64,000 nucleotides of DNA from Microthrixaceae bacterium (GTDB lineage Bacteria; Actinomycetota; Acidimicrobiia; Acidimicrobiales; Microtrichaceae), in assembly GCA_041394325.1 (NCBI GenBank), contig JAWKIJ010000001.1:1381096-1445095 (forward strand). Direction: 5' to 3'. Below, piece by piece: positions 9,487 to 32,214 of the stretch (within the stretch, counting starts at the first letter, position 1; the number at the start of each line of letters is the position of its first letter). A program made the translations under genes and the position numbers. The notes under the pieces are model-generated. The model worked only from the letters and a program-made list of their open reading frames with translations. It was not told the origin of the DNA and ran no database searches.

Positions 9487-9525
9487 GGATCCGCTGAAGG
9501 GGTGGACGGGGGGGCTCGGCGGTGG

Positions 9526-10644
9526 TCAGTCGAACGTGATGACGCCGCGGATGTTCTTGCCGTCGCGCATGTCCTGGTAGCCCTCGTTCACCTGGTCGAG
9601 GGTGTAGGTCCTGGTGACGAGTTCGTCGAGCTTCAGCTTGCCGTCGCGGTACAGGTTCAGGAGGGCCGGGATGTCGACGCGGGGGTTGCCGGATCCGAAC
9701 AGGCAGCCCTTCAGTTCCTTGTTGAGCATCGTGAACATGAACGGGTTCATGGTCACCTCGTTGTCGAGCATGTTCGCCACCGCGGTCATCACACAGGTGC
9801 CGCCCTTGGCGGTGATGGTGAGGGCCGGTTCGACCATGTCGCCCTTCATCACACCGGGGGTGAGGATGACCTTGTCGCACATCTCGCCCCAGGTGAGCGC
9901 ACCGATCTCGCCGATGGCCTCCTCGGTGGACGCGAATGTGTGCGTCGCCCCGAACTCCATCGCCTTCTCCCGCTTGAACTCGACGGGGTCGATGGCGATG
10001 ACGCGCCGGGCACCCGACAGTGCGGCACCCTGGATGGCGTTCATACCGAGTCCACCACAACCGATGACCGCGACGGTGTCGCCGGCTTTCACCTCGGCGC
10101 GGTGCACCGCGGACCCGTAGCCGGTGGCGACGCCGCACGACACGAGGGCCACCGCGTTCCACGGCAGGTCGGGGTCGACCTTGACCACGGCCGCCTCGGC
10201 CACGAGGAGGTGCTCGGCGAACGTGCCGAGCTGGCACATGCGGGCGAGGTCCCGGTCACCCACGTGATGGGCGACCCGACCGTCGGTCATCATGCCGAGG
10301 TCGAAGAGCTTGGCGCCGAGGTCGCACAGGTTGGAATGGCCCGACACGCACCACTTGCAGCGGCCGCACGACGGGATGAACGACATCGACACGTGGTCGC
10401 CCGGAGCGACCGACGTGACACCCGGGCCGACCGCGAGCACCTCGGCGGCACCCTCGTGGCCGCCGATGCACGGGAGGTGGGGCAGCAGCATGTCGCCGGT
10501 GACGGCGTGCTCGTCGGAGTGGCACATCCCCGCGGCCTTGGTCTGCAGGAGCACCTCGCCGGGACCGGGATCGTCGATGGTGACGTCCTCGATCTTCCAC
10601 GGCTCGTTGAGCCCCCACAACACCGCGGCACGTGACTGCACCAT
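9526..10644 (-). CDS. zinc-type alcohol dehydrogenase, probably the NDMA-dependent / mycofactocin-linked subfamily
   Basis: ORF 9526-10644. N-terminus SRAAVLWGLNEPWKIEDV, zinc ligands GMCHSDEH and CGRCKWC, Rossmann motif GCGGLG. Confidence 0.85.
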   Translation of the reverse strand: MVQSRAAVLWGLNEPWKIEDVTIDDPGPGEVLLQTKAAGMCHSDEHAVTGDMLLPHLPCIGGHEGAAEVLAVGPGVTSVAPGDHVSMSFIPSCGRCKWCVSGHSNLCDLGAKLFDLGMMTDGRVAHHVGDRDLARMCQLGTFAEHLLVAEAAVVKVDPDLPWNAVALVSCGVATGYGSAVHRAEVKAGDTVAVIGCGGLGMNAIQGAALSGARRVIAIDPVEFKREKAMEFGATHTFASTEEAIGEIGALTWGEMCDKVILTPGVMKGDMVEPALTITAKGGTCVMTAVANMLDNEVTMNPFMFTMLNKELKGCLFGSGNPRVDIPALLNLYRDGKLKLDELVTRTYTLDQVNEGYQDMRDGKNIRGVITFD

Positions 10645-13867: not shown

Positions 13868-14044
13868 ATGAGCCTCGACATCGTCGACCGGAACTCCGAC
13901 ATCGTCGACCACGACCCCGCCGCCGTCATCGCCGACGGACCGTCGCTCGGGGCGGACGACGCGACCGCTGTCGACGGCACCTTCGTCGAGGACGAGTTCC
14001 TCGTCGAGGAGATCTCCATCGACGGGATGTGCGGGGTCTACTGA
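13868..14044 (+). CDS. mftA: mycofactocin precursor peptide MftA (58 aa, not in ORF track)
   Basis: ATG 13868 with AGGAG 6 nt upstream. Translation is MSLDIVDRNSDIVDHDPAAVIADGPSLGADDATAVDGTFVEDEFLVEEISIDGMCGVY, ending in the MftA signature IDGMCGVY. It sits immediately upstream of mftB and mftC. Confidence 0.9.
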   Translation: MSLDIVDRNSDIVDHDPAAVIADGPSLGADDATAVDGTFVEDEFLVEEISIDGMCGVY

Positions 14045-14088
14045 GCCGTTCGACGCCGCGCACCCCGGCCAACAACGATCGGACCCCG

Positions 14089-14379
14089 ATGTCGATCCTG
14101 CTCGACGACGCCTACGAGCTACACCCACAGGTCTCGCTCCGCGACGAGCCGTTCGGCGCGCTTGCCTACCACTTCGGCAACCGTCGCCTCAGCTTCCTTC
14201 GCTCCCACGAGATGGTCCGTGTCGTCACCGAGCTCGCCGACTCGCCCGACGTCACGACCGCCTTCGACCGGGCGGGGATCGAAACGGCGCGCCGTCCCTC
14301 GTTCGTGCGGGCACTCGAGCGCCTGGCCGCGGGTGACATGATCCGGCCGCGCCGGGCCGACACCGCGGAGCCGGCGTGA
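14089..14379 (+). CDS. mftB: mycofactocin biosynthesis chaperone MftB
   Basis: Tail of ORF 13696-14379 from ATG 14089. Reads MSILLDDAYELHPQVSLRDEPFGALAYHFGNRRLSFL (PqqD/RRE-like). The stop overlaps the mftC start. Confidence 0.85.
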   Translation: MSILLDDAYELHPQVSLRDEPFGALAYHFGNRRLSFLRSHEMVRVVTELADSPDVTTAFDRAGIETARRPSFVRALERLAAGDMIRPRRADTAEPA

Positions 14380-15605
14380 TGACGGTGGCCGTCGGGTCGG
14401 TACCGGTGGAGCCCACCTCCCGTTCCACCCGTCGTGAAGGTGCGCCGGTGCATTCGGTGCAGCCACCCGCGCCGCGTCGGTCGACGCTGGTCGAGGACAT
14501 GAAGCGAGGTCTCGACGCGCCGATCTGTCTCACGTGGGAGCTGACCTACGCATGCAACCTGGCGTGTACGCACTGCCTCAGCTCGTCGGGCCGACGCGAT
14601 CCCCGCGAGCTCGACACCGACGAGTGCCTCGCATTGATCGACGACCTGGAGCGGATGCAGGTCTTCTACGTCAACCTCGGTGGTGGCGAGCCGATGCTGC
14701 GGCGCGACTTCTTCGACATCGTCGAATACGCGACCGCTCACCGGGTGGGGGTGAAGTTCTCGACCAATGGCACTTACCTCGACGCCGCCAACGCGGCGCG
14801 CCTCGCGTCGATGGACTACCTCGACGTGCAGGTCTCCATCGACGGTGCCGACGCTTCGGTCAACGACGCGGTGCGCGGCACCGGCTCGTTCGCGGCGGCC
14901 CGCACTGCGATGGAGCACCTCGCGAACGCGGCGTTCGGACCGTTCAAGATCAGCATCGTGGCGACGCGCCACAACGTCGACCAACTCGACGCGTTCAAGG
15001 CCATCGCCGACTCCTACGGTGCCCAACTCCGGATCACCCGCCTGCGGCCGTCGGGGCGCGGTGCGGGCACGTGGAACGAGTTGCATCCCACCGCGGAGCA
15101 GCAACGCCGCCTGTACGACTGGCTCATCGACCGCCCCGACGTGTTGACGGGTGACTCCTTCTTCCACCTGTCCGCCTTCGGCGAGGCGCTCCCCGGTCTC
15201 AACCTGTGTGGCGCCGGCCGGGTGGTGTGCCTGATCGACCCGGTCGGCGACGTCTACGCGTGCCCCTTCGTCATCCACGACGAGTTCCTCGCCGGCAACG
15301 TCCGTGGTCCCGGGGGATTCGCGGCGGTGTGGCGAGAGTCGGACCTGTTCCGCGAGCTGCGCGAACCGACCTCGGCCGGTGCGTGCGCCTCCTGTGGCAG
15401 CTACGACGCGTGTCAGGGCGGCTGCATGGCCTCCAAGTTCTTCGTGGGCCTCGACCGCTCCGACCCCGACCCCGAATGTGTGCACGGCCACGCCGAGGGT
15501 CTGCTCGCCACCGTCGACCCGTCGAAGGTGCCCGTCTCCGGTGTCGACCATTCGCGTCCGGCGGCCGTCGCGGTGTCGATCGGCTCGGCCCCTCCGAACC
15601 GGTGA
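14376..15605 (+). CDS. mftC: mycofactocin radical SAM maturase MftC
   Basis: ORF 14376-15605. DAPICLTWELTYACNLACTHC (CxxxCxxC cluster) and SPASM cysteines (CGAGRVVCLIDPVGDVYACPF, CASCGSYDACQGGC). Confidence 0.95.
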   Translation: MMTVAVGSVPVEPTSRSTRREGAPVHSVQPPAPRRSTLVEDMKRGLDAPICLTWELTYACNLACTHCLSSSGRRDPRELDTDECLALIDDLERMQVFYVNLGGGEPMLRRDFFDIVEYATAHRVGVKFSTNGTYLDAANAARLASMDYLDVQVSIDGADASVNDAVRGTGSFAAARTAMEHLANAAFGPFKISIVATRHNVDQLDAFKAIADSYGAQLRITRLRPSGRGAGTWNELHPTAEQQRRLYDWLIDRPDVLTGDSFFHLSAFGEALPGLNLCGAGRVVCLIDPVGDVYACPFVIHDEFLAGNVRGPGGFAAVWRESDLFRELREPTSAGACASCGSYDACQGGCMASKFFVGLDRSDPDPECVHGHAEGLLATVDPSKVPVSGVDHSRPAAVAVSIGSAPPNR

Positions 15606-17668
15606 AACTCGTCGAGCCGATCGTCGTCGGTTCGCGCACGGCGCCGAGCCGTGTGCTGTTCGGTCCTCACGAGACGAACCTCGGCGACGGCCGATCCATT
15701 GGCGAACGCCACGCCGCGTACTACGGGCGCCGTGCCGCGGGCGGTGCGGGGGTGATCGTCACCGAGATCGCGTCGGTTCACCCGAGCGACTGGCCCTACG
15801 AGCGTGCGCCGCTCGCCACCGAGTGTCGGCAGGGTTGGGCCGCGGTGGTGCGGGAGTGCCGTCCCCACGGTGCGCTCGTGATCGCCGGGTTGGGCCACGC
15901 AGGGGGTCAGGGCTCGAGCGCGTACAGCCAACGCGAGCTCTGGGCGCCGTCGGGTGTCCCCGAGGTCAACACCCGTGAGGTGCCCAAGGTGATGGAGGAC
16001 GACGACATCGCCGCGGTCATCGCCGGTTTCGCCGAGGGGGCGGCCGCCGCGATCGCGGCGGGATGTGACGGCGTGGAGCTCAACGCGGGGCAGCACTCGC
16101 TGATCCGCCAGTTCCTGTCGGGCCTCACGAACCAGCGCGGCGACGGCTGGGCGGACCGCACCCGCTTCGCCGAGGAGGTGCTCGCCGCGACCGTCACCGC
16201 GGCCCGGGCGGTCGATCCCGCCGCCGTGGTCGGGCTGCGGCTGAGCGGCGACGAACTGGCTCCGTGGGCGGGGATCACCCCCGATGACGCCCCCCCGCTG
16301 GCGGCGACGCTCGCCCGCCACATCGACTACCTGGTGGTCGTCCGGGGATCGATCTTCTCGGTACCCGCCACGCGCCCCGACTCCCACGTCGAGACGGGCT
16401 TCAACCTCGCATTGTGCGGTTCGATCCGCGACGCCGTTCGAGCCGGGCACGGCGACCGGGTCGCGGTCTTCGCACAGGGCTCGATCGTCGAGGTCGCCCA
16501 GGCCGAGGCCGCGATCGTCGAGGGGGTCTGCGACGGCGTCGAGATGACCCGGGCCCAACTCGCCGACGCCTCGCTCGTGGCCAAGGTCCGCGCCGGCCGG
16601 GCCGATCGGGTGCGGCCCTGTGTGCTGTGCAACCAGACGTGCATGGTGCGCGATGCACGCAATCCGGTGGTCACCTGCGTGGTCGATCCTCGGACCGGAC
16701 ACGAACGCCGCGACCCCGAGGTGGACCCGGCGGTGTCTTCGTCGTCGCCGGTCGATCGGCGATCGGCCGACGGTGCGCCGGTCGTCGTGGTGGGTGCAGG
16801 TGTCGCCGGGCTCGAGGCGGCGCGCGTCGCCGCTATTCGAGGCCATCGGGTGACGGTCCTGGAACGCTCGGCCCACCCCGGAGGGATGGTGCGTGTCGCG
16901 TCGGCCGGCTCGGGGCGTGCCCGCCTGGCCGTGTTCGTCGACTGGCTGGTGGGCGAATGCGAGAATCTCGGGGTCGAGTTCCGCTACCACACCTCGCTCG
17001 ACCGGGCCGAGGACGTCCCGCCCGGTTCGGCGGTCGTGGTGGCCACCGGATCGACCGAGGGGCTCGCCGACTACACCCGCACGAAGGCGGCCGTCGTGCT
17101 CGGGCCCGCGGCGGTGCTCGACGCGCTCGAAGAAGCGGCAATACCGGCCGGTCGTGTACTGGTGTGGGACCCGATCGGCGGACCGATCGGCGTCTCGTCG
17201 GCCGAGACGCTGGCCGAAAGGGGGCGCGACGTCGTGCTGGCGACCCCGGACCAGTTGGCGGGCAACGAGTTGAGCCGTACGGGGGACCTGGCACCGGCGA
17301 ACGGCCGACTCCAACAGCGGGGGATCGTGATCGAACGGCGCGTGGTGCTGCGGGCGGTCCGCAAGGGCAGTGCCGAAGTCGAGGACCGGTTCTCGGGCCG
17401 GCGACGGACCATCCGGTGTGCGGTGGTGGTCGACGCGGGCCACCGGCTCCCCGACGACGCGTTGTTCCACACGCTCGCCGGCGAGGGTGGCGACAGTCGT
17501 CAGGACGCGTTCGTCGTGCGGGCGGGCGACTCGGTGGCCCCGCGCACCATCCTCGAGGCGGTGCGCGAAGGGCGCGCCGCGGCCATCGCGCTCGACGGGG
17601 GGATCCGGCTCAGTGACGGGGTGCCGATGGGCACCGGCGCCATACCCGGAGTGGGGATGACGCGGTGA
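15602..17668 (+). CDS. FadH/OYE-family flavin oxidoreductase (2,4-dienoyl-CoA reductase-like), mycofactocin-system type 1
   Basis: Tail of ORF 15206-17668 from GTG 15602, which overlaps the mftC stop. It has an OYE/FMN barrel, a CVLCNQTC iron-sulfur motif and a VVGAGVAGLEAA dinucleotide fold. Length 688 aa. Confidence 0.85.
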   Translation: MKLVEPIVVGSRTAPSRVLFGPHETNLGDGRSIGERHAAYYGRRAAGGAGVIVTEIASVHPSDWPYERAPLATECRQGWAAVVRECRPHGALVIAGLGHAGGQGSSAYSQRELWAPSGVPEVNTREVPKVMEDDDIAAVIAGFAEGAAAAIAAGCDGVELNAGQHSLIRQFLSGLTNQRGDGWADRTRFAEEVLAATVTAARAVDPAAVVGLRLSGDELAPWAGITPDDAPPLAATLARHIDYLVVVRGSIFSVPATRPDSHVETGFNLALCGSIRDAVRAGHGDRVAVFAQGSIVEVAQAEAAIVEGVCDGVEMTRAQLADASLVAKVRAGRADRVRPCVLCNQTCMVRDARNPVVTCVVDPRTGHERRDPEVDPAVSSSSPVDRRSADGAPVVVVGAGVAGLEAARVAAIRGHRVTVLERSAHPGGMVRVASAGSGRARLAVFVDWLVGECENLGVEFRYHTSLDRAEDVPPGSAVVVATGSTEGLADYTRTKAAVVLGPAAVLDALEEAAIPAGRVLVWDPIGGPIGVSSAETLAERGRDVVLATPDQLAGNELSRTGDLAPANGRLQQRGIVIERRVVLRAVRKGSAEVEDRFSGRRRTIRCAVVVDAGHRLPDDALFHTLAGEGGDSRQDAFVVRAGDSVAPRTILEAVREGRAAAIALDGGIRLSDGVPMGTGAIPGVGMTR

Positions 17669-19673
17669 GCGAACAGTTGTTGTGGTCGCCGTTGCGCATC
17701 GGACCCGTCACCGTGCGGAACCGTGTGGTGTTCTCGGCTCATCTCACCAACTACGCCACCCAGGATGGGCTGGCCTCGCCGCAGCACGCCGCCTACTACG
17801 CCGAACGCGCACGTGGTGGCGCCGGGCTGATCATCACCGAGGAGCACTCGACCCATCTCACCGACTGGCCCTACGAGAAGCTGATCCACGGCTTCCGGCC
17901 CGAGGTGGTCGAGGGCTACCGGGCGATCACCGAGGCGGTGCACCGGCATCGGACGCCGATCTTCGCTCAGATCAACCACAACGGGGGGCAGGCCTCGTCG
18001 ATGTTCAGCCGCCTGCCCGTGTGGGCGCCTTCGGCGGTGGCCGACCCGTTGTTCCGGGAGGTTCCAAAGGCGGTGAGCGCGTCGGAGATCGACGAGATCG
18101 TTGCCGGTTACGCGCTCGTCGCCGCGCACTGCCGGGAGGGCGGCTTCGACGGGATCGAACTCCAGTGCAGCCACAGTTCGATCGTGCGCGGATTCCTGTC
18201 GCCGGCCACCAACCGGAGGACCGACGACTACGGCGGGCCGATCGAGGCGAGGGCACGGTTACTGGTCGAGATCGTCTCGGCGGTCCGAGAGGCGATCGGT
18301 CCGGGCCTCGCCCTGGGGGTCCGCCTGTGCGGTGACGAACTGATCGACGGTGGCACCACAATCGCCGACGCGGTCGCCACCGCTCGCATCGTCGAGGCGA
18401 CCGGGCACGTCGACTACATCAACACCTCCATCGGGGTGGCGACCGCGTCGCTGTTCATGATCGAGGCGTCGATGCACATCCCTCCCAACTACGCGATGTT
18501 CATCCCCTCCGCCCTGCGCGCCGCGGTGGAACTCCCCGTCGTCGGGGTGGGTCGTTTCAAGGATCCGCTCCAGGCGGACCGGGCGCTCCGTGAGGGCCTG
18601 TGCGACCTCGTGGGAGTGGTGCGCGGCCAGATCGCCGACGCGGACTTCGTCCGCAAGGCCCGGGCCGGTCGCGCCGAAGACGTGCGGTTGTGCCTGTCGT
18701 GCAACCAGGAGTGCGTCGGCCGAATGGGCCTCAACCGTTGGCTCGGCTGCATCGAGAACCCGAGGACCGGTCGCGAGTCACAGGGGGTCGGGCTGGCGGC
18801 GCCGGTCGCCCGTCGCCGCCGGGTCCTGGTCGTCGGCGCGGGTCCCGCGGGTATGCAGGCGGCGATCGCAGCGGCCCGCAACGGACATCACGTCACGGTG
18901 CTCGAACGCGAACGCGAGGTCGGCGGGCAGCTTCGGATCGCCGCGACGGTGCCCAACCGCGCGGAGCTGGGCGACCTGGTGCGCAACCAGCTCGCCGAAT
19001 GCGGGCGCCTCGGCGTGGTCGTCGAGACGGATGTGGACGCGACCGTCGAAGGGGTGCGGGCGCACGGGGCCGACGAGGTCGTCGTCGCGACCGGCGCCGT
19101 GCCTGCACGGCCGTGGTGGGCGCCCGAAGAGGCCGACTGGATCGTCGACGTGCGCGACGTCCTCGAAGGCCGTGCGCATCCCCAGGGCGACGTCGTCGTG
19201 CTCGACGAGGTCGGCTTCCACCACGCCACCTCGGTGGCCGAGCTCCTCGCCGACCGAGGTTGTCGGGTCGAGGTCGTCACCCCGGCATGGTCGTCGGCCA
19301 GGACCTCGGGATCACGTTGGACATGGAGAACTGGTGGATCCGGGCGACGGCCAAGGGGATCGTCCAGACGATCGAACTCGTGCCGATGGGCGTCGACGCG
19401 GCGACCCGCACGGTCGCGTTCCAACATCATCCGACCGGCCGGGACGTGCAGCGCACGGTGGATGCGATGGTGTTGGCGGTGCCCGCTTCGCCGGCGGACT
19501 CCCTCTACTTCGCGTTGAAGGAGGCGGGTGTCGCGGTGCAACGGGTGGGCGACTGCGTCGCACCGAGGCGCGCGCATGCGGCGGTGATCGACGGTGAACG
19601 GGTCGGCTCGGCAATCGGCAGCCGTCTGGCGGGCAGGCCTCCCATGTTGCGGCGCTCTATGCGTCGTCGTTGA
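17665..19673 (+). pseudogene. FadH/OYE-family flavin oxidoreductase, mycofactocin-system type 2; one frame break near 19285
   Basis: ORF 17665-19518 carries the N-terminal OYE domain, CLSCNQECVG and VVGAGPAGMQAAI. From about 19285 the family-like sequence GMVVGQDLGITLDMENWWIRATAKG...GDCVAPRRAHAAVIDG continues in the frame of ORF 18600-19673. GTG 17665 overlaps the previous stop. Confidence 0.8.
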
Positions 19674-19750: not shown

Positions 19751-20578
19751 TCAGCCGAGTCCGACGTCGCTGACGACGATGAAACCGGCGTTGAACGAGG
19801 TGACGTCGTCGGTGCCGGTGGCGCTGCTCGTGCAGTCGACACCCGCGACCAGTGCCCGGTCGGTCGGGGAGAGGGCGGGAGGCTCCTCGACCGTGCCCCT
19901 CACCTTGCCCGAAGCGCAACTCGGTGCGTTGATGTTGGCCACGGTGGCCTTCTGCAACGATCCGGCGTGTTCGTCGAGCCATGCCATGGCCGCCTGCACC
20001 GCTGCGGAATAGTCGATCTCGGTGCCGCCGGCGGGTAGTCCCTGGCTGATCGCCACCGCCGGCAGGCCGCGCCGCGCCGCGGCTCGGGCCGCGCCGACGG
20101 TCCCCGAGATCGACAGAACCGGTCCGAGGTTCTGACCGAGGTTCACACCGCTCATGACCAGATCCGGCGGAGTCCCGGCCAGCACGGTGTCGAGCCCGTA
20201 GACGACCGAGTCCGCGGGTGTTCCCTTCACCGCCACCGCGGCAAGCCCACCGGCAGTGGCCGTGTCCGTCGCGGTCGGTGACGGTGTCGTGGAGTCGCCC
20301 TTGCCGCTCTGGTTCTCGGCCGGGGCGACGATTACGACACGCGAGACGTCGGCGCGGCCGGACAGTGCACGGGTGAGCTGGTCGATTCCCTCGGCGTGCA
20401 CCCCGTCGTCGTTGCTCACCAGTACGACCAGCCCTCTCGCCGGGGTGTTCGTGCTGGTCGTCGTCCTCGCAGCATCGAGCGTCGTCGGGCCCGAGGCGTT
20501 CCCGTCGCCACCGCACCCCGTCGTCGAGGCCGCAAGGGCGAGGGTTACGAGCAGGATCGTGTTCACCGATCGTCGCAT
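19751..20578 (-). CDS. surE: SurE-family 5'/3'-nucleotidase with lipoprotein signal peptide
   Basis: ORF 19751-20578. MRRSVNTILLVTLALAASTTGC (lipobox-like) is followed by VLVSNDDGVHAEGI (SurE motif) and SGVNLGQNLG. Confidence 0.8.
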   Translation of the reverse strand: MRRSVNTILLVTLALAASTTGCGGDGNASGPTTLDAARTTTSTNTPARGLVVLVSNDDGVHAEGIDQLTRALSGRADVSRVVIVAPAENQSGKGDSTTPSPTATDTATAGGLAAVAVKGTPADSVVYGLDTVLAGTPPDLVMSGVNLGQNLGPVLSISGTVGAARAAARRGLPAVAISQGLPAGGTEIDYSAAVQAAMAWLDEHAGSLQKATVANINAPSCASGKVRGTVEEPPALSPTDRALVAGVDCTSSATGTDDVTSFNAGFIVVSDVGLG

Positions 20579-20623
20579 CGCCGCACGATATCGAGTCGAA
20601 CCCCGATGGCGACGGTGTTCGAC

Positions 20624-21649
20624 TCACTCGAACTCGGCCGGCAACTCCCAGGGGGCGGTCGGTAGTGGATCGCCCGTCTCCAGGAAGGTCTTCAGGTTGG
20701 ACAGGGCGGCCGGCCAGCCATGCTCGGCGGCCGTCCGGGTCGATCCCTCCAGTCCTTCGTGCAGCACCGTGAGACGGGTGACCGTCGTGAAGTCGTCGAG
20801 TCGGTAGGTGACCCGCGACGGTGGGGTTTCCGGTCCGGTTCGCTCCTCCCATGTCGTGACAAGGCGCTTCGGCCGTGTCGCCTCCAGGACCTCGCCGTCG
20901 ACGACGGTCGCCCCCGCACCGTCGTCGTGTCGGTTGCGCCACCGCGACCCCACTTCCCATGACGACTCGTTGCGACGGCCCCACCACGCGGCCGTGAGGT
21001 CCCCGTCGGTCAGCGCAGCCCACACGTCGTCGGCCGAGGCGCCCAGGTACAGCACGACCTGCAACGGCAGCGCGTCCGCGCCACGGTCCACGGTGGGTGC
21101 CACATCGACCGCGCCCGCCGGGTGGGTGGAGAGGTCAACGGGTCCGAGGGCGTGGATCCATCGGGTGTCGTGCTCGCCGGGTCTGCGGTCGAGTGGTCGC
21201 ACGAGTGGATCGGTCCGTACGGCCATGGACTCGAGCGCGGCGTCGACGGCGCCGCGGTCGGCGAAGGGGTGGAGCCGCTCGGATCTGGTCTTCAGCTCAC
21301 CGGCGGACTGGGGGCCGCGCAACAGCAACAACGTCACGATCGCCCGTTCGGCGTCGTCGATCCCGATTCGCTCGTCGAGCACCTGCCGGAATTTCACCGC
21401 CCGGGCACCGCCTGACGCGTAGACGATCCGTGCGAGGCCACGGGCCTTCAGGCGGTCGATCGCCTCGGTCACCGTCCGGTCGTCGAAGTCGACGACCGGG
21501 TCCCGGCTGTTCTTCTGGTTGCACGCCGTGCGTAGAGCGTTGAGCGTCATCGGGTACGTGTCGGGAACGGTGCGCTGCTTCTCCATCAGCGCCCCGATCA
21601 CCCGTTGCTCGACGGTGTCGAGTTCGGGAAGGCCGTCGGATGGCTCCAT
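20624..21649 (-). CDS. YceH (DUF480)-like domain fused to an SRPBCC/AHSA1 domain
   Basis: ORF 20624-22036. Start moved to ATG 21649 (MEPSDGLPELDTVEQRVIGALMEKQ, matching the start of E. coli YceH). C-terminal part reads ADDVWAALTDGDLTAAWWG...TRLTVLHEG. The Pro/Ser-repeat N-terminal extension in the track ORF is treated as the antisense shadow of the 48-bp repeat. Confidence 0.7.
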   Translation of the reverse strand: MEPSDGLPELDTVEQRVIGALMEKQRTVPDTYPMTLNALRTACNQKNSRDPVVDFDDRTVTEAIDRLKARGLARIVYASGGARAVKFRQVLDERIGIDDAERAIVTLLLLRGPQSAGELKTRSERLHPFADRGAVDAALESMAVRTDPLVRPLDRRPGEHDTRWIHALGPVDLSTHPAGAVDVAPTVDRGADALPLQVVLYLGASADDVWAALTDGDLTAAWWGRRNESSWEVGSRWRNRHDDGAGATVVDGEVLEATRPKRLVTTWEERTGPETPPSRVTYRLDDFTTVTRLTVLHEGLEGSTRTAAEHGWPAALSNLKTFLETGDPLPTAPWELPAEFE

Positions 21650-21719
21650 CGACCAGACGCTATTGCCCGTGCCGTCGACCTGCGGCGGGCCGTTCGCCGG
21701 TAGTGGATACAGTCCGCTC

Positions 21720-21956
21720 ATGACCATCACCGATGACGACATCACCGCCGGCCCCGCGGACGAAGAGCTCACGACGCTGACACTCGGCGACTCCGACGCC
21801 TCCGACGGCGGCGACAGTGACGGCACCGACGGCGGCGACTCCGACGGGTCCGACGGGGGCGACAGTGACGGCACCGACGGCGGCGACTCCGACGGGTCCG
21901 ACGGGGGCGACAGTGACGGCACCGACGGCGGCGACTCCGACGGGTCCGACGCCTGA
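21720..21956 (+). CDS. 78-codon acidic Asp/Gly/Ser/Thr-repeat ORF; either a separate small protein or (favoured) the frameshifted N-terminal extension of the downstream JmjC/cupin gene
   Basis: Tail of ORF 21519-21956 from ATG 21720. Reads MTITDDDITAGPADEELTTLTLGDSDASDGG(DSDGTDGGDSDGSDGG)x2 DSDGTDGGDSDGSDA. No strong SD. See finding. Confidence 0.35.
   Translation: MTITDDDITAGPADEELTTLTLGDSDASDGGDSDGTDGGDSDGSDGGDSDGTDGGDSDGSDGGDSDGTDGGDSDGSDA
21786..21950. repeat. 48-bp perfect tandem repeat, about 3.4 copies
   Basis: Unit gacagtgacggcaccgacggcggcgactccgacgggtccgacgggggc at 21813-21860 and 21861-21908 (identical). 21909-21950 is the first 42 nt of a third copy, and a diverged partial copy lies at 21786-21812. 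Confidence 0.9.
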
Positions 21957-22189
21957 ACGACCGAGTTCCTCCCGAGCAGGACGAGTCGGCCCTGTTCGAT
22001 TCCGAAGCGCACTGGCAGGTCCGGCGCGTCCTCCATCGGGACGCGCCGGACCTCGCCGCGCTCGTCGACGACGCCGCGACGTTCCGTTCGATCGACCTGT
22101 TCACCCGGCCCCGGGCATTTCCCGCACCGACCGGATCCGGCACGCCTGCTCTCACCTTCACCGACCCCGATCGCCTGTGGGACGACTTC

Positions 22190-23239
22190 TTGGGGCGCGG
22201 CACTCGTCGGCCCGCGTTCCGTCTGGTGGAGAACGGAGTCAACCTCGTGGCGTCCACCGTCACCCGTCGTGTGGGGATGGGCAATCGATCCCTCGACGAC
22301 GTGGTCGATCCCGCGGCCGTGGTTCGCCGCTACCGGGACGGGGCGACCGTCTCGCTACAAGGCCTGCAGCACACCGACCCGGAGCTGGCCCGGCTGGCCA
22401 ACAACCTCGCACTCGAACTCGATCACCGCACCCAGGTCAACGCGTACCTGTCGCCCTCGAATGCCCGGGGCCTCGACCTCCACCTCGACTTCCACGACGT
22501 GTTCGTGGTGCAGGTGCGCGGTGTCAAGCGGTGGCGCGTCTGGGACCCGCTCCCCGATGTCCGCCATCCTGTGAAGGGTCTGCACCGCGCGACGGGCCCG
22601 ACACTCGACGAACTCGGCGATCCGTCCCTCGACCTGACGATGCGGCCCGGTGACCGCCTCTACCTGCCACGGGGCTTCCTCCACGCCGCCGAGACGATCG
22701 ACGTCGCATCGGAGCACCTCACCGTCGGGCTCGTGCCGCTCCGCTGGGATCGGGTGCTGCACCGCTGCATCGACGCCGAGGTCGCGGGCGGGCGTTTCGC
22801 CGAGTCGCTTCCCGCCGGGCTGCTGTCGCCGGGCGCGGTCGCCGCACTCGGGTCCGCGGTCGCGTTCCCCTCGCTGCCGGCCGACGCGGTGGCGCGATGG
22901 GCGGGCTCGTCACTACAGCGGTGGATGGTCACCGAGATATGGCGTCGGCAACCGCTGACCCGCGTCCCGCCGCGGGATCTTCCCAGACCGGGCGACGGGG
23001 CGCCGTTGCACTGGACGCCCGGCCCACTGATCTGGCTGACCACAGAAGGCGGTCGCGCACGGCTCGGCTTCGGCGACCGGCGACTCGACCTGCCGATCGG
23101 TGCACTCGGATACCTGTCGTCACTGGTGGCCGCCGACCCGGCGGTCGACCTCGCATCGATCGAAGCCGACCTCGATGCGTCGTCCAGAGGTGTCGTCCTC
23201 CGGCGGATGTTGGGCGAGGGGCTCGTCGCGCATGACTGA
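22190..23239 (+). CDS. JmjC/cupin_4-family oxygenase (ribosomal-oxygenase-like); true 5' end probably further upstream
   Basis: ORF 22190-23239 (TTG start). Reads RPAFRLVENG..., VNAYLSPSNARGLDLHLDFHDVFVVQVRGVKRWRV and GDRLYLPRGFLHAAET. The same frame stays open and family-like upstream to about 21915, but has no ATG/GTG/TTG there. Confidence 0.75.
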   Translation: MGRGTRRPAFRLVENGVNLVASTVTRRVGMGNRSLDDVVDPAAVVRRYRDGATVSLQGLQHTDPELARLANNLALELDHRTQVNAYLSPSNARGLDLHLDFHDVFVVQVRGVKRWRVWDPLPDVRHPVKGLHRATGPTLDELGDPSLDLTMRPGDRLYLPRGFLHAAETIDVASEHLTVGLVPLRWDRVLHRCIDAEVAGGRFAESLPAGLLSPGAVAALGSAVAFPSLPADAVARWAGSSLQRWMVTEIWRRQPLTRVPPRDLPRPGDGAPLHWTPGPLIWLTTEGGRARLGFGDRRLDLPIGALGYLSSLVAADPAVDLASIEADLDASSRGVVLRRMLGEGLVAHD

Positions 23240-24191
23240 ACGCTCCGCACCGCGCTTCGAGTGTGCCCCGGCGTCGTGCGCGCGGGCCGAGCCGCTCGAC
23301 GCCACCGCAAGCAGGGTGCCTTCGTGGCTGTTGATCGAGGTGCACGGCGCGTGGGGGGCCGCGGCGATCGAGCAGAGCGCGTTGGGAGAGCACCTGCCAC
23401 CGGGTTGGCGAGCCGAGTTGAAACGGCACGGCATCCGCCCTGTTTGCATCCGCCGCCCGCGCCGCCCGCCCGCGTCGGACGACACGTCGGCGGCGACGGT
23501 GTTCCACGTGCGGCCGCGCCGCCCCGGCGAGGGACGCTCCGAGGTGTGGACGGCCACGGTCGGAGGACTCGACGCGATCGCCGGGCTCTCTGCCGCGATC
23601 GTGGCCGGGCTCGGCGCGCCCGATGCGGGACCGGGGCCACCATGGACACCGACGACCGATCCGATCGCGCTGATCTGCACCAACGGTCGTCACGATCCGT
23701 GCTGCGCGAACTTCGGCCGCCCGCTTGTCCGTGCCCTCGCGGAGGGTCCGTGGGCGGACCGATTGTGGGAGTGCTCCCACATCGGCGGCGACCGGTTCGC
23801 GCCCAACATGGTGTTGCTCCCCGAGGGCCTGTACTTCGGTCGGCTCGATCCGCGATCAGCGGTGGAGGCGTTGCACGCGTACGCGGCGGGGACGATTTCA
23901 CCGACGCACTTCCGCGGACGGTCCACGTTCCGGCTCCTCGAACAGGCCGCGGAGATCGCCGTGCGCCGACGATTGGCCGATCGCGGCCAGTTTCCGGGGA
24001 TCGACGACGTGCAGGTCGAGTTGCGGGGGGTCCTCGACTCGGTCGCCGAGTTGGTGGTGACGGCTTGCCGGGTGCGGCATCTGGTACGGGTGCGGTGCTC
24101 GACCGAGCAGGTAAGTGAACCACTCACCTGCAAGGGCCCGGGAGACCAACGTGCTCCCCGCTTCGAGGTGCTGGAGATCGCGGCCCGCTGA
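23232..24191 (+). CDS. sucrase/ferredoxin-like (thioredoxin-like [2Fe-2S]) family protein
   Basis: Tail of ORF 23100-24191 from ATG 23232 (ATGACTGA overlap with the cupin stop). Motifs LICTNGRHDPCCANFGRP and WECSHIGGDRFAPNMVLLPEGLYFGR. Confidence 0.75.
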   Translation: MTERSAPRFECAPASCARAEPLDATASRVPSWLLIEVHGAWGAAAIEQSALGEHLPPGWRAELKRHGIRPVCIRRPRRPPASDDTSAATVFHVRPRRPGEGRSEVWTATVGGLDAIAGLSAAIVAGLGAPDAGPGPPWTPTTDPIALICTNGRHDPCCANFGRPLVRALAEGPWADRLWECSHIGGDRFAPNMVLLPEGLYFGRLDPRSAVEALHAYAAGTISPTHFRGRSTFRLLEQAAEIAVRRRLADRGQFPGIDDVQVELRGVLDSVAELVVTACRVRHLVRVRCSTEQVSEPLTCKGPGDQRAPRFEVLEIAAR

Positions 24192-24216
24192 TCCCGACCG
24201 GCGATTCGCGAGCGTG

Positions 24217-25101
24217 TCAGGCGACCTCGAAGCCTTTGATCATGCCCACCATCACGTGGGCGGGTGCGTTCTCGGGGGGCGCTCCGGCTCCGGTGTAGCC
24301 CACGGGACGCGGGCAGAGGATCACGTAGGTGCCCCTCGTCAGCCGTGCGGTCACGCTGCCGGTCCCTCCGGGAGTGGTGAACGCTCCGTCCACGACGTCC
24401 TTGCCGACCTTCGTCAGAGCCTCGAACGGATCTCCCGTGGCGTTCTTGATCGCATCGGTCACCGCCTTCACCGGGTCGCCGCGCACGTCCTTGTTGAGAC
24501 GGATGAGCACGATCATGTGGGCGTTCTGACCCTGCGACGTTCCCTTGAACGACACCGGACCTTCGGGGAGCGTTGCGGGCATCCCCTCGTATGCGTAGTC
24601 ACGGAAGGTCAGATCGACCTTGGTGAACCCGCAGTGGTCGTGCACCCAGTTCCCGAGGGTGCTGAAGGCGACGGTCGGCGAATCCGCCTCGAGTTGGGAC
24701 GTGTCGCCTCCCGCTGCCACCGCGGCGAGCGCGGAGGTGAGTGTGCCGAGCGGCGCCGTGAGCTCGGTCGGCGGGTCCTGGTCACGGGTGAGGAGCGCGT
24801 TCATCCGGAGAGCGTCGGCTTTGATCTCGTTGGGTGGCGTGCTCTCGTCGAAGATCTGCGATGCCACCTTGTCGACATCTATCCACGCGTCGCACAGCTC
24901 CCGATGGCCGCTCGTGACCCGCTTCGCGGTGGTCCCCGAGCCGGCGCGTCCGGAGGTCGTGGCGCTCCCGCTCGCGACGGAGCTCTTGGAGTCGGTCTTG
25001 GCGCATGCCGGCATCAGGAGGACGGCGGCGGCGAGCACGGTCGCGGGGATGAGCCCTCGATGTTGCCGGTGGCGCGGAGGTGAGGAGTGTTCGGTGCGCA
25101 T
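24217..25101 (-). CDS. putative lipoprotein of unknown function (C-terminal cupredoxin-like region?)
   Basis: ORF 24217-25200; start at ATG 25101. MRTEHSS...LIPATVLAAAVLLMPAC (lipobox). C-terminus reads AHMIVL...YVILCPRP...HVMVGMIKGFEV. Confidence 0.55.
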   Translation of the reverse strand: MRTEHSSPPRHRQHRGLIPATVLAAAVLLMPACAKTDSKSSVASGSATTSGRAGSGTTAKRVTSGHRELCDAWIDVDKVASQIFDESTPPNEIKADALRMNALLTRDQDPPTELTAPLGTLTSALAAVAAGGDTSQLEADSPTVAFSTLGNWVHDHCGFTKVDLTFRDYAYEGMPATLPEGPVSFKGTSQGQNAHMIVLIRLNKDVRGDPVKAVTDAIKNATGDPFEALTKVGKDVVDGAFTTPGGTGSVTARLTRGTYVILCPRPVGYTGAGAPPENAPAHVMVGMIKGFEVA

Positions 25102-25196
25102 GAGCGAATCCTCCTCGACCGTGCCCGCCGAGGCGAGGGTGTCAGCCGTCGGAGATCGGTGGTGCCAGCACCCCCGCGCCGTCGCCTGCGGCGGGC

Positions 25197-27699
25197 TCAC
25201 ACCGGTTCGAGCGCCCGTTCGATCACCTCTGCGACGTCCTCCACGAGGGTGATGACCAGTCGGTCGCGCACCGTTGCGGGGATGTCGTCGAGGTCGGCCT
25301 CGTTGCCCTTCGGAAGGATGACCTCGGTGATCCCCGCGCGGTGCGCCGCCAGCACCTTCTGCTTCACCCCGCCGATCGGAAGGACGCGCCCTTGCAACGT
25401 GACCTCGCCCGTCATGGCCACCTCGGCCCGTACGGCGCGGCCCGTCAGCAGGCTGGTGAGCGCGGTGGTCATCGTGATGCCCGCGGATGGTCCGTCCTTG
25501 GGGATCGCGCCCGCGGGGAAGTGCACGTGGATCGGGCGACGGTCCGCCCCCGGCGCGATGCCGAGTCGATCACGGTGCGCCCGCACGTAGGTGAGCGCGA
25601 TCGTCGCCGACTCCTTCATCACGTCACCGAGTTGACCGGTGACCGTCAGGGGGCCGGGGGCACCGGCCGACGTGTTCGGGCGAGGTCCGAAGGCGTCTTC
25701 ACTCCGCCACTCGGCGTCCTGTACGAGGGGAGCGTCGTCGGTGGGCAGCGCGGTCGTCTCGACGAACAGCACGTCGCCACCCGCGCCGGTCACCGCGAGC
25801 CCGGTTGCGACCCCGGGGGTCGAGACGCGGTCGCGGACGTCGTCGGAGTGGAACCGTGCGCGACCCAACACACCGGCAACGTCGTCCGAATCGATGCGCA
25901 CCGTCGGTCCGGGTGATCCGCTCCCCCCGACCGGAGGCTCGGTTGCCGCCGGTTGCGAGGCGACGGTCGTCGCCGTCTTGCGCAACAGCTTGGCGAGCGT
26001 GCGCTCCAGGGAGCGGACCCCGGCCTCGCGGGTGTAGTCGGCGACGACCCGGTGCAGCGCCTCGTCGGTCACTTCGACCTCGCCGGGGCGGAGACCGATC
26101 CGGTTGCCGAGCCGCGCCAGGAGGTGGTCACGTGCGATGGCGACCTTCTCGTCGATGGTGTAACCGTCGAGGGTGACCACCTCCATGCGGTCGAGCAGCG
26201 GCCCGGGGATGGTGTCGAGTTGGTTCGCGGTCGCCAGGAAGATCACGTCGCTGAGGTCGAGGTCGAACTCCAGGTAGTGATCCCGGAACGAGTGGTTCTG
26301 CGCGGGGTCGAGGACCTCGAGCAGTGCCGACGCGGGGTCGCCCCGCCAGTCGGTGCCCACCTTGTCGATCTCGTCGAGCAGGAAGACGGGGTTCATCGTC
26401 TTGGCCTCGATGAGGGCGCGCACGATCCGGCCTGGCCGCGCGCCGACGTAGGTGCGTCGATGACCTCGGACCTCCGCCTCGTCGCGGACGCCACCCAACG
26501 CGACACGCACGAACGTGCGGCCGAGTGCCCGGGCGATCGACTCGCCGAGCGATGTCTTGCCCACCCCGGGAGGGCCGACCAGTGTCAACACCGTTCCGTA
26601 CCGCCGGTCGGCCGGCGCCAGAGACGTCGGGGGTGCCTTCGTCGGGGTGCTCGCCGCGCTCGATGCGGAGCTTGCGGACCGCGAGCTCCTCGACGATGCG
26701 GTCCTTCACGTCGCCGAGCCCGTAGTGGTCGGCGTCGAGCACCTCGCGCGCCGCGGAGAGGTCGAGGTGATCCTTGGAGCGTTCGCCCCACGGCAGTTCG
26801 AGGACGGTGTCGACCCAGGTTCGGATCCAGCTCACCTCGGGTGATTGATCGCTGCTGCGTTCGAGGCGCGACAGCTCGCGTTCGGCCGCGTCGCGCACCG
26901 CCTCGGGGAGGTCGCGTGCGTCCAGCCGCCGGCGATACGAGACAGGGCTGTCGTCATCGCTGCCGTCGTCACCGAGCTCCTTGCGGATAGCGGCGAGCTG
27001 TTGGCGCAGCATGAACTCGCGCTGGGTCTTCTCCAGTCCCTCACTGACCTCGGTACGGATCCTGCGTGTCAGCTCGACCTCGGCCAGTGCCTCCTTGACC
27101 CAACCGAGGACCAACTCGAGGCGGTCGGTCAGCCCGAGCGTCTCGAGGAGTTCGACCTTGCGCTCGACGGCGAGGTCGGGCCACCAGCCCGCTGCGTCGA
27201 CGAGGGCCGCGGGGTCGTCGAGGCCCCGCAGCACACCGTCGAGACGCGGGCCGAACTGTTCGAACAACGCACGGAACGCCGCCCGCAGCTCCACTGCGAG
27301 TGAACGGTCGTGCTCGGTCGGTTCGGTCTCGTTGACAACCTCGGCCTGGAGCCACAGGGTGCTACCCGTGCCGGCCACGCCCGAGCGCAGCCGTGCCCGG
27401 CCGAGCGCCCGTACCACCAACGCCGGCGTGCCGGAGGGGAGCGTCCCTGTCGACTCGATCTTGGCGAGCGTGCCGACCGCAGCGTGGCGGCCGTCGATCC
27501 TGGGGACGAGCAGCAGCCGGTCGTCCTCGCCGGTGGCTTCCACCGCGGCGCGCGCGTCGTCGGTCTCGAGGGCGATCGTCAGGACCATGCCGGGGAGGAC
27601 CACCCCGTCGGGTAGGGGCAATACGGGCAGGGTCAGGGTGTCCGGGGCGGCGCCGGCGTCGCCGAGGCGGGCTGAATCGGTGTCGGTGGTGTCGGGCAT
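25197..27699 (-). pseudogene. lon: Lon protease, one frame break near 26595-26650
   Basis: ORF 26128-27699 gives the N-terminal and coiled-coil domains up to AVRKLRIERG. ORF 25197-26591 gives TLVGPPGVGKTS (Walker A), FLLDEIDK and PKDGPSAGITM (catalytic Ser). The two parts are in different frames. Confidence 0.9.
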
Positions 27700-27976
27700 C
27701 GGGCGTCCTCCGGCGTCGGGGCAAGGTCCGTTCGGCGGCAGGGACCTACCGCTCAGGTACGAACAACCAGCGCAATGAACCTGCTATTCCAACGCTCAAG
27801 TACCGGTATGACCGGAGGAGACCGCGATGCCGACGAGCGAATCGTCCACCGATGCGGGCGGTCGGGCGCGGAGCCGTCCTCGGTGATGCCGGTGACGACA
27901 GGTGGTGGGTACTGTCTGGCCCTGACGACGCCACCACAGGGGGAGCGATGACCGATCCGACACGGGGGACGAACCG

Positions 27977-29560
27977 ATGAGTAGCGCAGCGGCCGGCGAG
28001 GCGGGTACGGCGATGGTGGACGCACCGACGTTGTGGGATCTGGTGGAGCGCAGGGCTGCGGCCACCCCCGACGCCGTGCTGCTCATCGGCGCGGACGACC
28101 GCACACTCACCTGCAAGGAGTTCCGCGACCGCGCCGAGCGGGTTGCGGCCGGGTTCGCCGAGCGCGGTGTCAAGGCCGGGACCCGCGTCACCTGGGAACT
28201 GCCCAACCGCTTCGAGACGGTGCTGGCAAGCTTCGCGCTCGCACGGCTCGGCGCGATCCAGAACCCCATCCTGCACTTCTACCGTCACAAGGAGGTGGGG
28301 TACGCGATCCGGGCGACGACCGCGGAGTTCGTGTTGGTGCCGGGCACCTGGGGCGGGTTCGACTTCGGCGGCATGGTCGACGAACTCGTGGCCGATGTTC
28401 CCGAGGCCGAACGCCCGACGGTGATCGACGTGTTCGCCGACCTCCCCGATGCGGACCCCGCGGGCCTGCCGACGGCGCCGACCGACGGCGACGAGATCCG
28501 CTGGATCTACTTCACGTCCGGCACGACGTCGGATCCCAAGGGTGTGCGCCACAGTGACCGCACTCTCATCACCGGTGCCAACGGCCTCGCGGTCGCCCTC
28601 GACATGTCCTCCGACGACGTCGGATCGATCGCGTTCCCCTTCAGCCACATCGCCGGCCCCGACTACTTCGGCTCGATGCTGATCGGTGGGTTCGCCGCGG
28701 TGCTGTTCGAGACCTTCGTCCCCACCGACGCGATCCCCGTCCTCGCGCGGCACGGCGTCACGATGGTCGGCGGCGGTCCGGCGTTCTACTCCATGTACCT
28801 CGCCGAGCAGCGCAAGACGCCCGACGTGCCCGTCATCCCCACGCTGCGGAAGATGTCGGGCGGCGGGGCGCCGATGCCACCCGAGCAGTACGACGAGATC
28901 CAGCGCGAGTTCGGGGTGAAGACCTGCCACGGCTACGGCATGACCGAGTGCCCGATGATCTGTGAGGGGTCACCCCACGACACCGACGAGCAGCTCAAGA
29001 ACACCGTCGGCAAGCCGGTGGTCGGTCTCGACATGCGCGTGGTCGACGAGCACGGCGCCGAATGCGGTCCCGGAGCCGACGGCGAGATCCGCCTCAAGGG
29101 ACCGATGGTGTTCCGCGGCTACACCGACCCCGCAGCCACCGCGGAGGCGTTCGACGGCGAGGGCTGGTTCCGCACCGGCGATCTCGGACACCGCCGTCCC
29201 GACGGCCACGTTGTGCTCACAGGCCGGCTCAAGGACGTGATCATCCGCAAGGGTGAGAACATCTCGGCCAAGGAGATAGAGGACGTCCTGTACTCGCACC
29301 CCAAGGTCGGCGACGTGGCGGTGATCGGCCTGCCCGACGCCGAGCGTGGCGAGCGGGTGTGCGCGGTGGTCGAGCGGGCCGAAGGCGCCGACGACCTCAC
29401 CTTCGACGAGATGACCGAGACACTCCGCGACGCCCAACTCATGCGCCAGAAGTTCCCCGAACAACTCGAGGTGGTCGACGCGCTGCCCCGCAACGAGACG
29501 TTGCGCAAGGTGTTGAAGTTCAAGCTTCGCGAGGAGTACGGCGCCAAGCCGTGGCCATGA
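27977..29560 (+). CDS. AMP-dependent acyl-CoA synthetase/ligase
   Basis: ORF 27977-29560. Motifs YFTSGTTSDPKGV, GYGMTE, TGDLG and RKGENIS. The stop overlaps the ETF-alpha start (ATGA). Confidence 0.85.
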   Translation: MSSAAAGEAGTAMVDAPTLWDLVERRAAATPDAVLLIGADDRTLTCKEFRDRAERVAAGFAERGVKAGTRVTWELPNRFETVLASFALARLGAIQNPILHFYRHKEVGYAIRATTAEFVLVPGTWGGFDFGGMVDELVADVPEAERPTVIDVFADLPDADPAGLPTAPTDGDEIRWIYFTSGTTSDPKGVRHSDRTLITGANGLAVALDMSSDDVGSIAFPFSHIAGPDYFGSMLIGGFAAVLFETFVPTDAIPVLARHGVTMVGGGPAFYSMYLAEQRKTPDVPVIPTLRKMSGGGAPMPPEQYDEIQREFGVKTCHGYGMTECPMICEGSPHDTDEQLKNTVGKPVVGLDMRVVDEHGAECGPGADGEIRLKGPMVFRGYTDPAATAEAFDGEGWFRTGDLGHRRPDGHVVLTGRLKDVIIRKGENISAKEIEDVLYSHPKVGDVAVIGLPDAERGERVCAVVERAEGADDLTFDEMTETLRDAQLMRQKFPEQLEVVDALPRNETLRKVLKFKLREEYGAKPWP

Positions 29561-31900: not shown

Positions 31901-32214
31901 GCGACAGCGAGCTTCCGATGACGGACCTGTATCCCGAGATCGGCTTCGAGCGGAGGATGGACACCGTCGAGTTCCGGGTTGGCGAACGCGCCCACATCAC
32001 CGTCGACGGCGACACGTGTCGGGGATGCACCACCAGGGCGTGCGTGGTGGCCTGCCCGGCCAACCTGTTCGTCCCCACCGCCGACGGCGGCATCCTGTTC
32101 AACTACGAGCAGTGCTTCGAATGCGGCACCTGCTACATGGTGTGCAACGACGAAGGCGCCATCACCTGGACCTACCCCGACGGTGGTCAGGGCGTCGTGT
32201 TCCGGAGCACGTGA
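31897..32214 (+). CDS. fixX: FixX-type ferredoxin-like protein
   Basis: Tail of ORF 31516-32214 from ATG 31897 (ATGA overlap). Motifs CRGCTTRACVVACPANLF and CFECGTCYMVC. Confidence 0.8.
   Translation: MSDSELPMTDLYPEIGFERRMDTVEFRVGERAHITVDGDTCRGCTTRACVVACPANLFVPTADGGILFNYEQCFECGTCYMVCNDEGAITWTYPDGGQGVVFRST

Follow-up and report, generated by a model that had tools for sequence, protein, structure and literature searches.

A mycofactocin gene cluster lacking mftD in a Microthrixaceae genome, with a FadH/OYE and ETF/FixCX gene module as a candidate replacement

The DNA analyzed in this work, hereafter the window, is a stretch of 64,000 nucleotides (positions 1,381,096 to 1,445,095 of contig JAWKIJ010000001.1, assembly GCA_041394325.1) from a Microthrixaceae bacterium of the class Acidimicrobiia. 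The window has a G+C content of about 70%, and is part of a 3,044,961-bp contig in a 3.07-Mb assembly. It hosts genes for the biosynthesis of the redox cofactor mycofactocin, but the genome lacks MftD, the enzyme which deaminates the intermediate AHDP to premycofactocin, creating the redox-active keto-amide (PMC11778925). The window carries instead six flavoprotein and iron-sulfur genes, encoding two oxidoreductases of the FadH/Old Yellow Enzyme (OYE) type, called OYE_1 and OYE_2, the two subunits of a dedicated electron transfer flavoprotein (ETF), and FixC- and FixX-like proteins. The cluster is a real and complete, though assembly-damaged, member of a widespread mycofactocin variant which has been named in databases but is experimentally unstudied. 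The novel finding is that MftD and the OYE/ETF/FixCX module strictly exclude each other, an either/or relation which has evolved repeatedly. Judging from gene content and distribution, we lean slightly towards the view that the window encodes a complete MftD-less, or ETF-type, mycofactocin system, in which the OYE pair and ETF/FixCX would replace MftD as an O2-independent AHDP dehydrogenase.

Genes were identified by comparing NCBIfam profile scores, given in bits throughout, with curated cut-offs. The mftA gene (13868..14044, +; TIGR03969, 48 bits, cut-off 25) encodes a precursor peptide with the C-terminus ...EEISIDGMCGVY, and is followed by the genes for the chaperone MftB (14089..14379, +; TIGR03967, 104 bits, cut-off 33) and the radical SAM/SPASM maturase MftC (14376..15605, +; TIGR03962, 600 bits, cut-off 265). 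OYE_1 (15602..17668, +; TIGR03996, 733 bits, cut-off 628) and OYE_2 (17665..19673, +; TIGR03997, 828 bits, cut-off 793, plus a separate piece of 102 bits) come next. The TGA stop of mftB (14377-14379) overlaps the GTG start of mftC at 14376, as GTGA read in the sequence, and GTGA stop/start overlaps also join mftC to OYE_1 at 15602 and OYE_1 to OYE_2 at 17665. A preliminary description of the same DNA had reported mftA-mftB-mftC and a FadH/OYE pair chained by overlapping codons, and both the five family assignments and the three overlaps were verified. That description had overlooked the second half of the system, which resides in the same window at 29.6-36.4 kb in the order etfA-fixC-fixX-etfB-mftE-SDR-mftF. 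This half includes the genes for the peptidase MftE, of the creatininase family (33070..33786, +; TIGR03964, 263 bits, cut-off 172), a mycofactocin-coupled short-chain dehydrogenase/reductase (SDR) (33892..34725, +; TIGR04504, 321 bits, cut-off 250) and the glycosyltransferase MftF (34757..36367, +; TIGR03965, 324 bits, cut-off 280). A MftA ending in GVY, MftB, MftC, MftE and MftF, components of the mycofactocin biosynthesis system, are thus all present above their cut-offs.

The ETF/FixCX genes precede mftE. The etfA (fixB-like) gene (29557..30606, +) encodes the alpha subunit of a mycofactocin-associated ETF (NF038209, 306 bits, cut-off 240). Next to it is a gene for a FixC-like, FAD-dependent ETF:quinone oxidoreductase (30603..31900, +), which a 1-nt deletion near 30886 divides into two pieces corresponding to positions 7-93 and 104-416 of PRK10015/FixC. 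A FixX-like ferredoxin is encoded at 31897..32214 (+), and scores 51 bits with PRK15449, below the cut-off of 166. The etfB (fixA-like) gene (32222..33070, +), encoding the mycofactocin-associated beta subunit, is interrupted by one frameshift at the least, and probably by two; its pieces match TIGR04503 at positions 1-131 (79.5 bits) and 130-249 (94 bits). An intact etfB orthologue is found in locus L064 (TIGR04503, 222 bits, cut-off 200), an intact fixC in L067. The genes from etfA to mftE are chained via ATGA, GTGA or TGATG overlaps, fixC and fixX by ATGA, etfB and mftE by TGATG.

In 80 related loci the genes lie in the order mftB-mftC-OYE_1-OYE_2, then 3-6 kb, then mftE-(SDR)-mftF, and in at least 20 of 26 related loci the gap between OYE_2 and mftE is filled by etfA-fixC-fixX-etfB. 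Because the gap in relatives holds these four genes, the window cluster is, to judge from gene order, the same cluster as the contiguous one of relatives, broken up behind OYE_2 by a stretch of about 9.9 kb. The interrupting stretch (19751..29560) carries genes in mixed orientation, encoding SurE-like (-), DUF480/AHSA1 (-), JmjC (+) and Suc_Fer-like (+) proteins, an unknown open reading frame (ORF), the Lon protease (-) and an acyl-CoA ligase (+). Nothing in the related loci matches the SurE-like, DUF480/AHSA1 or JmjC genes, and for the acyl-CoA ligase they yield only weak paralogous matches (25-32% identity), located outside the OYE_2-to-etfA gap. In the window the stop codon of the ligase gene (27977-29560, +) overlaps the etfA ATG (ATGA at 29557), so that in the present genome the ligase gene is translationally coupled to the ETF genes; its position is not conserved in relatives.

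The preliminary description had also noticed that MftD, MftR and MftG are missing from the window, and none of them was found in the 3.04-Mb chromosome contig either. For MftD (TIGR03966, cut-off 471), the best match in the whole genome scores 244 bits and is located at a distance of about 500 kb; for MftG (cut-off 387), the best one scores 232 bits. A tblastn search of the assembly, using as query a MftR sequence verified by its TIGR03968 score (294 bits), yielded only TetR helix-turn-helix matches of at most 40 bits, none of which falls in the window. Assembly gaps are unlikely to account for these absences, because the chromosome is essentially one contig. The suggestion that mftD is encoded elsewhere is therefore refuted for the present assembly, no match to TIGR03966 above cut-off being found in the 3,044,961-bp contig. 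The LldD-like gene at C1:883821 was considered as a hidden MftD, and rejected since it scores 525 bits with PRK11197 LldD and only 245 bits with TIGR03966. A class-III aminotransferase gene (PRK06062 family, 736 bits) resides directly upstream of mftA (11823-13190, +). The enzyme could in principle transaminate AHDP, but it was largely rejected as an alternative deaminase, since it is found in 3 of the 80 related loci.

The relation between MftD and OYE_2 was analyzed by running the curated models of both proteins against identical sets of genomes, presence being a score above cut-off. In the class Acidimicrobiia (201 genomes), mftC has been identified in 39 genomes, all from one order: 22 have MftD only, 16 OYE_2 only, one neither, and none both. 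In the phylum Actinomycetota (391 genomes, 44 with mftC), 31 have MftD only, 11 OYE_2 only, two neither, and again none has both. The union of the samples includes 62 mftC-positive genomes, subdivided into 41 with MftD only, 19 with OYE_2 only and two with neither (Fisher p = 5e-14, uncorrected). The two genomes of the last type are fragmented assemblies, in which mftC lies on contigs of 5.2 and 2.6 kb. All genomes with MftD and all those with OYE_2 (16/16 in the class, 11/11 in the phylum) contain mftC, and OYE_2 is found in no mftC-negative genome. The LldD-derived probe behind the negative mftD calls recovers every true mftD, and in several OYE-type genomes no homologue of the alpha-hydroxy-acid oxidases was found at E <= 1e-30. 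Nine extra genomes, picked because OYE_1 lies apart from OYE_2, all lack MftD, and in eight of them OYE_2 is present elsewhere in the genome.

The MftC tree, which follows taxonomy, requires at least 11 changes of state, 6-8 of which are forced by supported branches, and switches have taken place within the genera g6 and g9. Phylogenetically independent contrasts are opposite in 7 of 7 cases (sign test, p = 0.016). MftG was considered as a confounder of the dichotomy, and rejected since none of the 201 genomes of the class, the present one included, has MftG above cut-off. The association of the FadH/OYE enzymes with mycofactocin, and their relation to MftD, had been indicated in the preliminary description as points worth checking. 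OYE_2 proved confined to mftC-positive genomes and strictly exclusive with MftD; the combination thought to speak against a role in the system, an intact mftD together with OYE genes unlinked to mft loci, was found on neither count.

Gene neighborhoods follow the same divide. None of the etfA, fixC, fixX, etfB or OYE genes was found in the 20-kb regions around mftC or mftD of 12 MftD-type genomes. In turn, the order OYE_2-etfA-fixC-fixX-(etfB)-mftE recurs in three OYE-type clusters from two other, non-Acidimicrobiia actinobacterial families. MftD-type clusters often have mftD right beside mftE, at the place which the end of the OYE/ETF module takes up in the other type. The C-terminus of MftA (...S/A-I/V-D-G-M/L/I-C-G-V-Y, with the core ...IDGMCGVY) is identical in both cluster types, and MftC and MftE should therefore yield the same AHDP, needing the same oxidation.

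The layout is subject to some variation. A divergent system, with a MftC of 331 bits and a MftA ending in ...AVDGICGVY, has been identified in L123 (G229, family f63). A single OYE_2-type gene lies there beside etfA-fixC-fixX, and no OYE_1 is found nearby; the arrangement suggests that the module is centred on OYE_2 as its core enzyme. In L098-L105 (G561-G568, Ilumatobacteraceae-like) OYE_1 lies near mftC, and OYE_2 either on another contig or far off beside a SDR gene. Adjacency of the OYE paralogues is therefore common, but not required. Among MftD-type genomes, mftC and mftD are 0.16-3.6 Mb apart in family f3. The MftD-type Acidimicrobiales L107-L122 have MftD, and neither MftG nor ETF/FixCX near the mft genes.

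The closest relatives of the window proteins are found in metagenome-assembled genomes (MAGs) of Acidimicrobiales/Microthrixaceae, with about 62% identity in the case of OYE_1. OYE_1 had been described as a 688-aa OYE protein starting at 15602 and carrying the motif CVLCNQTC, and this was borne out by profile score and motif alike. The protein is made of a FMN barrel, a CxxCxxxC...C 4Fe-4S site and a GxGxxG FAD/ADP fold. The four cysteines of the 4Fe-4S cluster are retained in both paralogues, as is the middle-domain GxGxxG. The two proteins fall into a FMN/4Fe-4S/ADP-or-FAD superfamily which holds both ene-reductases, as FadH and 2-naphthoyl-CoA reductase (NCR), and amine dehydrogenases, acting on trimethylamine or histamine. 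Among solved structures the top match of OYE_1 is histamine dehydrogenase (6de6), those of OYE_2 are the E. coli 2,4-dienoyl-CoA reductase FadH (1ps9) and NCR (6qkg), at 236-263 bits. The models of BaiCD and bilirubin reductase are matched by both paralogues. In neither protein does the third domain carry the GxGxxG that binds NADPH in FadH; in the alignment it corresponds to the histamine dehydrogenase domain which has no dinucleotide motif (vvvyDDDHYY..AE.LA). Tyr166, the proton donor of FadH, aligns with Ser in both. The Cys which in the PHC motif forms 6-S-cysteinyl-FMN is absent as well, the corresponding sequences being PHETN in OYE_1 (Glu) and AHLTN in OYE_2 (Leu).

The reaction of MftD is O2-linked, and trimethylamine dehydrogenase (TMADH) hands the electrons of its 4Fe-4S cluster on to an ETF. 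The presence in the cluster of a dedicated ETF, together with an ETF:quinone oxidoreductase, agrees with such a scheme. On these grounds we infer a substrate, a direction of electron flow and a division of labour between the OYE paralogues as follows. MftC and MftE would make AHDP, the same intermediate as in mycobacteria. The FadH/OYE iron-sulfur flavoenzymes would oxidize the amine of AHDP to an imine, and hydrolysis would give the keto-amide premycofactocin, thereby accomplishing the step of MftD. The two electrons would bypass O2, moving from FMN to the [4Fe-4S] cluster, the dedicated ETF, FixCX and finally menaquinone, as they do from TMADH to its ETF. The module may also re-oxidize reduced mycofactocin, because the electron chain is so large. 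The preliminary description had proposed, as one of two alternatives, a role of the FadH/OYE pair in the maturation or redox cycling of the cofactor. Comparative genomics supports involvement of the pair, but does not separate maturation from cycling or from both; the earlier picture also missed the partners ETF and FixCX as well as the half with mftE and mftF, and had taken OYE_2 straight through a frameshift.

Several points weigh against the replacement of MftD by the module. No function is recorded for TIGR03996, TIGR03997, NF038209 and TIGR04503, and no biochemistry on them was found in the literature searched. The genome samples are limited to Actinomycetota, and MftD and OYE_2 may occur together in other lineages; a TIGRFAMs note reportedly mentions Rhodococcus. 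OYE_2, fixC and etfB are each broken in the present assembly. The covalent-FMN Cys of TMADH and histamine dehydrogenase is missing from both paralogues, and in sequence OYE_2 is nearest to the ene-reductases FadH and NCR, rather than to amine dehydrogenases. Moreover, a dedicated ETF and an ETF:quinone oxidoreductase appear oversized for low-flux biosynthesis, and better fit recycling.

This last point leads to the main alternative scenario, in which OYE/ETF/FixCX serve recycling only: the module would be a mycofactocinol:menaquinone oxidoreductase, an analogue of MftG feeding respiration, and AHDP would be deaminated by another enzyme. A dedicated ETF with FixCX does hint at a high-flux catabolic electron route, and MftG is absent from the whole set of Acidimicrobiia. 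More generally, 25% of mftC-positive genomes lack MftG, and what replaces it has been asked (eLife 2025, PMC11778925). However, MftD-type Acidimicrobiia also lack MftG, and their clusters have no ETF/FixCX; the module hence tracks the absence of MftD, not that of MftG. Nor is there a conserved alternative deaminase, the class-III aminotransferase being confined to the few loci mentioned above. The LldD-like protein of the genome is an ordinary LldD, and several OYE-type genomes have no homologue of that family. Recycling as the sole function is accordingly regarded as rather unlikely. Somewhat less doubtful, yet still tentative, is the notion that the six genes for OYE_1, OYE_2, EtfAB and FixCX replace both oxygen-linked flavoenzymes of mycobacteria, one OYE paralogue acting as O2-independent AHDP dehydrogenase, and the other working with ETF/FixCX as mycofactocinol:menaquinone oxidoreductase.

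The two OYE proteins could also be client enzymes, that is FadH/BaiCD-like ene-reductases or dehydrogenases acting on an acyl-CoA or another metabolite, with mycofactocin and ETF as mere redox partners and no part in the synthesis of the cofactor. Such a function would agree with the structure matches of OYE_2 to 2,4-dienoyl-CoA reductase and 2-naphthoyl-CoA reductase, with the BaiCD and bilirubin reductase matches of both paralogues, and with the acyl-CoA ligase gene overlapping the etfA start in the window. Yet the ligase is not kept at this position in relatives, and client dehydrogenases, as the SDR and the Zn alcohol dehydrogenase, are found in both cluster types, whereas MftD and the OYE pair never occur together in the sampled genomes. 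Translational coupling ties the OYE genes to mftC, and their place is between that gene and mftE. The replacement of Tyr166 by Ser in both paralogues, and the missing NADPH motif, also do not fit a FadH-like reductase, and the client hypothesis appears quite improbable.

The state of the genes in the assembly deserves comment. OYE_2 is not an intact gene reaching 19673, since a 1-nt deletion at 19285/19286 splits the frame. The frame from 17665 covers positions 2-536 of TIGR03997, degenerates, and is terminated by a stop codon at 19518; the segment for positions 537-645 lies in a different frame (19287-19673). The first 540 residues alone pass the cut-off of the family. The break is due to one missing base in caCCCCGGcatg; model positions 536 and 537 abut, and no residue is lost. 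Programmed frameshifting was rejected because orthologues are in frame, and the intact OYE_2 orthologue of L017 spans the break as ...VITPGMVVGQ.... Overall, five breaks are found between 19 and 33 kb. In fixC, ccc is changed into cc near 30886, and in etfB breaks occur near 32595 and probably near 32950. The lon protease gene (25197-27783, -) is also split into two frames, with a break at 26597-26635 in a C5 run.

If the frameshifts in OYE_2, fixC and etfB were real, three of the six module genes would be broken, and the mycofactocin system would be under loss. The hypothesis is deemed highly improbable. The housekeeping gene lon is broken likewise, which points to indel errors in the assembly. 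Every break is a single-base change at a C or G run, and nothing is lost at the OYE_2 junction. The assembly consists of one 3.04-Mb contig and 11 tiny ones, with 91% completeness and 4% contamination, as is typical of unpolished long-read assemblies, and similar splits are seen in other long-read MAGs of relatives, such as L025, L050 and L075. The single-base nature of the events, their location at G/C runs, the absence of lost residues, and quality figures this low for an assembly with one large contig make it likely that the frameshifts in OYE_2, fixC, etfB and lon are assembly errors. For OYE_2, an assembly indel is most likely, rather than a dead gene.

The ETF-type system shares with the canonical mftR/mftA-B-C-D-E-F/mftG system of Mycobacterium and Rhodococcus a MftA with the ...IDGMCGVY core, MftB, MftC, MftE, MftF, the SDR and the NDMA-type Zn alcohol dehydrogenase. 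It differs in that the genome lacks MftD, MftR and MftG and has the six flavoprotein and iron-sulfur genes instead, and in that the cluster is split by about 9.9 kb. The window proteins are members of TIGR03996, TIGR03997, NF038209 and TIGR04503, OYE_1, OYE_2 and EtfA by their own score, the frameshifted EtfB by its two pieces (79.5 + 94 bits). The same layout is seen in the 80 related loci, as well as in actinobacterial families other than this one. As the preliminary description had stated for FadH/OYE 1 and 2, these families are named but uncharacterized: NCBIfam labels all four as mycofactocin-associated, and they are names only. The strict exclusivity with MftD was not found on record, and in the literature searched no paper ties mycofactocin to FadH/OYE enzymes in the present sense, to ETF, or to Acidimicrobiia.

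TMADH of Methylophilus methylotrophus with its ETF, and histamine dehydrogenase (3k30, 6de6), are built on the same plan as the OYE proteins, namely FMN barrel, 4Fe-4S cluster, ADP/FAD fold and a third domain free of a dinucleotide motif. The OYE proteins align at full length to 6de6, 3k30 and 1djn, and as for TMADH a dedicated ETF is encoded alongside. The proposed chemistry would also be of the same kind, amine to imine. Differences are the lack of the covalent-FMN Cys, the occurrence of two paralogues versus a homodimer, and the low phmmer scores (130 bits for OYE_1, 160-190 bits for OYE_2). FadH (1ps9) and NCR (6qkg) have the same cofactor domains and 4Fe-4S motif as OYE_2. Yet the alignment to 1ps9 ends at query residue 513, before the NADPH domain, GCGGIG has no counterpart, and Tyr166 is changed into Ser. 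With FixABCX and ETF:quinone oxidoreductase the module shares the gene set etfA(fixB)-fixC-fixX-etfB(fixA) and the FixC- and FixX-like homology. In contrast, the FixC and FixX proteins do not reach the cut-offs set for the E. coli-type models, and the two ETF subunits fall into families of their own, associated with mycofactocin.

The cofactor cannot work without the step carried out by MftD, yet about 30% of the sampled mftC-positive Actinomycetota (19/62) have no MftD. TIGR03966, TIGR03964 and TIGR03968 were reported in most, not all species with mycofactocin (Haft 2011, PMC3023750). The either/or pattern turns the notion that MftD is not universal (Haft 2011) into an assayable hypothesis, an O2-independent route of iron-sulfur flavoenzymes and ETF by which mycofactocin would be made, and perhaps also recycled. 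Were the replacement hypothesis correct, four NCBIfam families known by name only would gain a function. If the six-gene module replaced both oxygen-linked flavoenzymes, as in the more tentative reading above, it would couple mycofactocin-dependent alcohol oxidation to respiration, and mycofactocin metabolism would be possible without O2. The pattern also bears on the MftG question, that is how mycofactocin is linked to respiration in organisms which lack MftG.

Genes flanking the cluster are worth mentioning. Upstream of mftA, on the opposite strand (8542-10644, -), lie genes for a MoxR-like AAA ATPase and for the Zn alcohol dehydrogenase (9526..10644, -; TIGR03989, 544 bits, cut-off 440), a nicotinoprotein dependent on N,N-dimethyl-4-nitrosoaniline (NDMA) whose family has been listed as mycofactocin-linked (Haft 2011, PMC3023750). 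The dehydrogenase gene is kept upstream of mftA in 33 of the 80 related loci, and the ATPase is found near mft genes in 24 of them; both have also been found in MftD-type loci. Downstream of mftF (36645-38587, +), ORFs encode a ChsH2-type OB fold and a thiolase-like domain, and may belong to a set for the degradation of steroid or lipid side chains.

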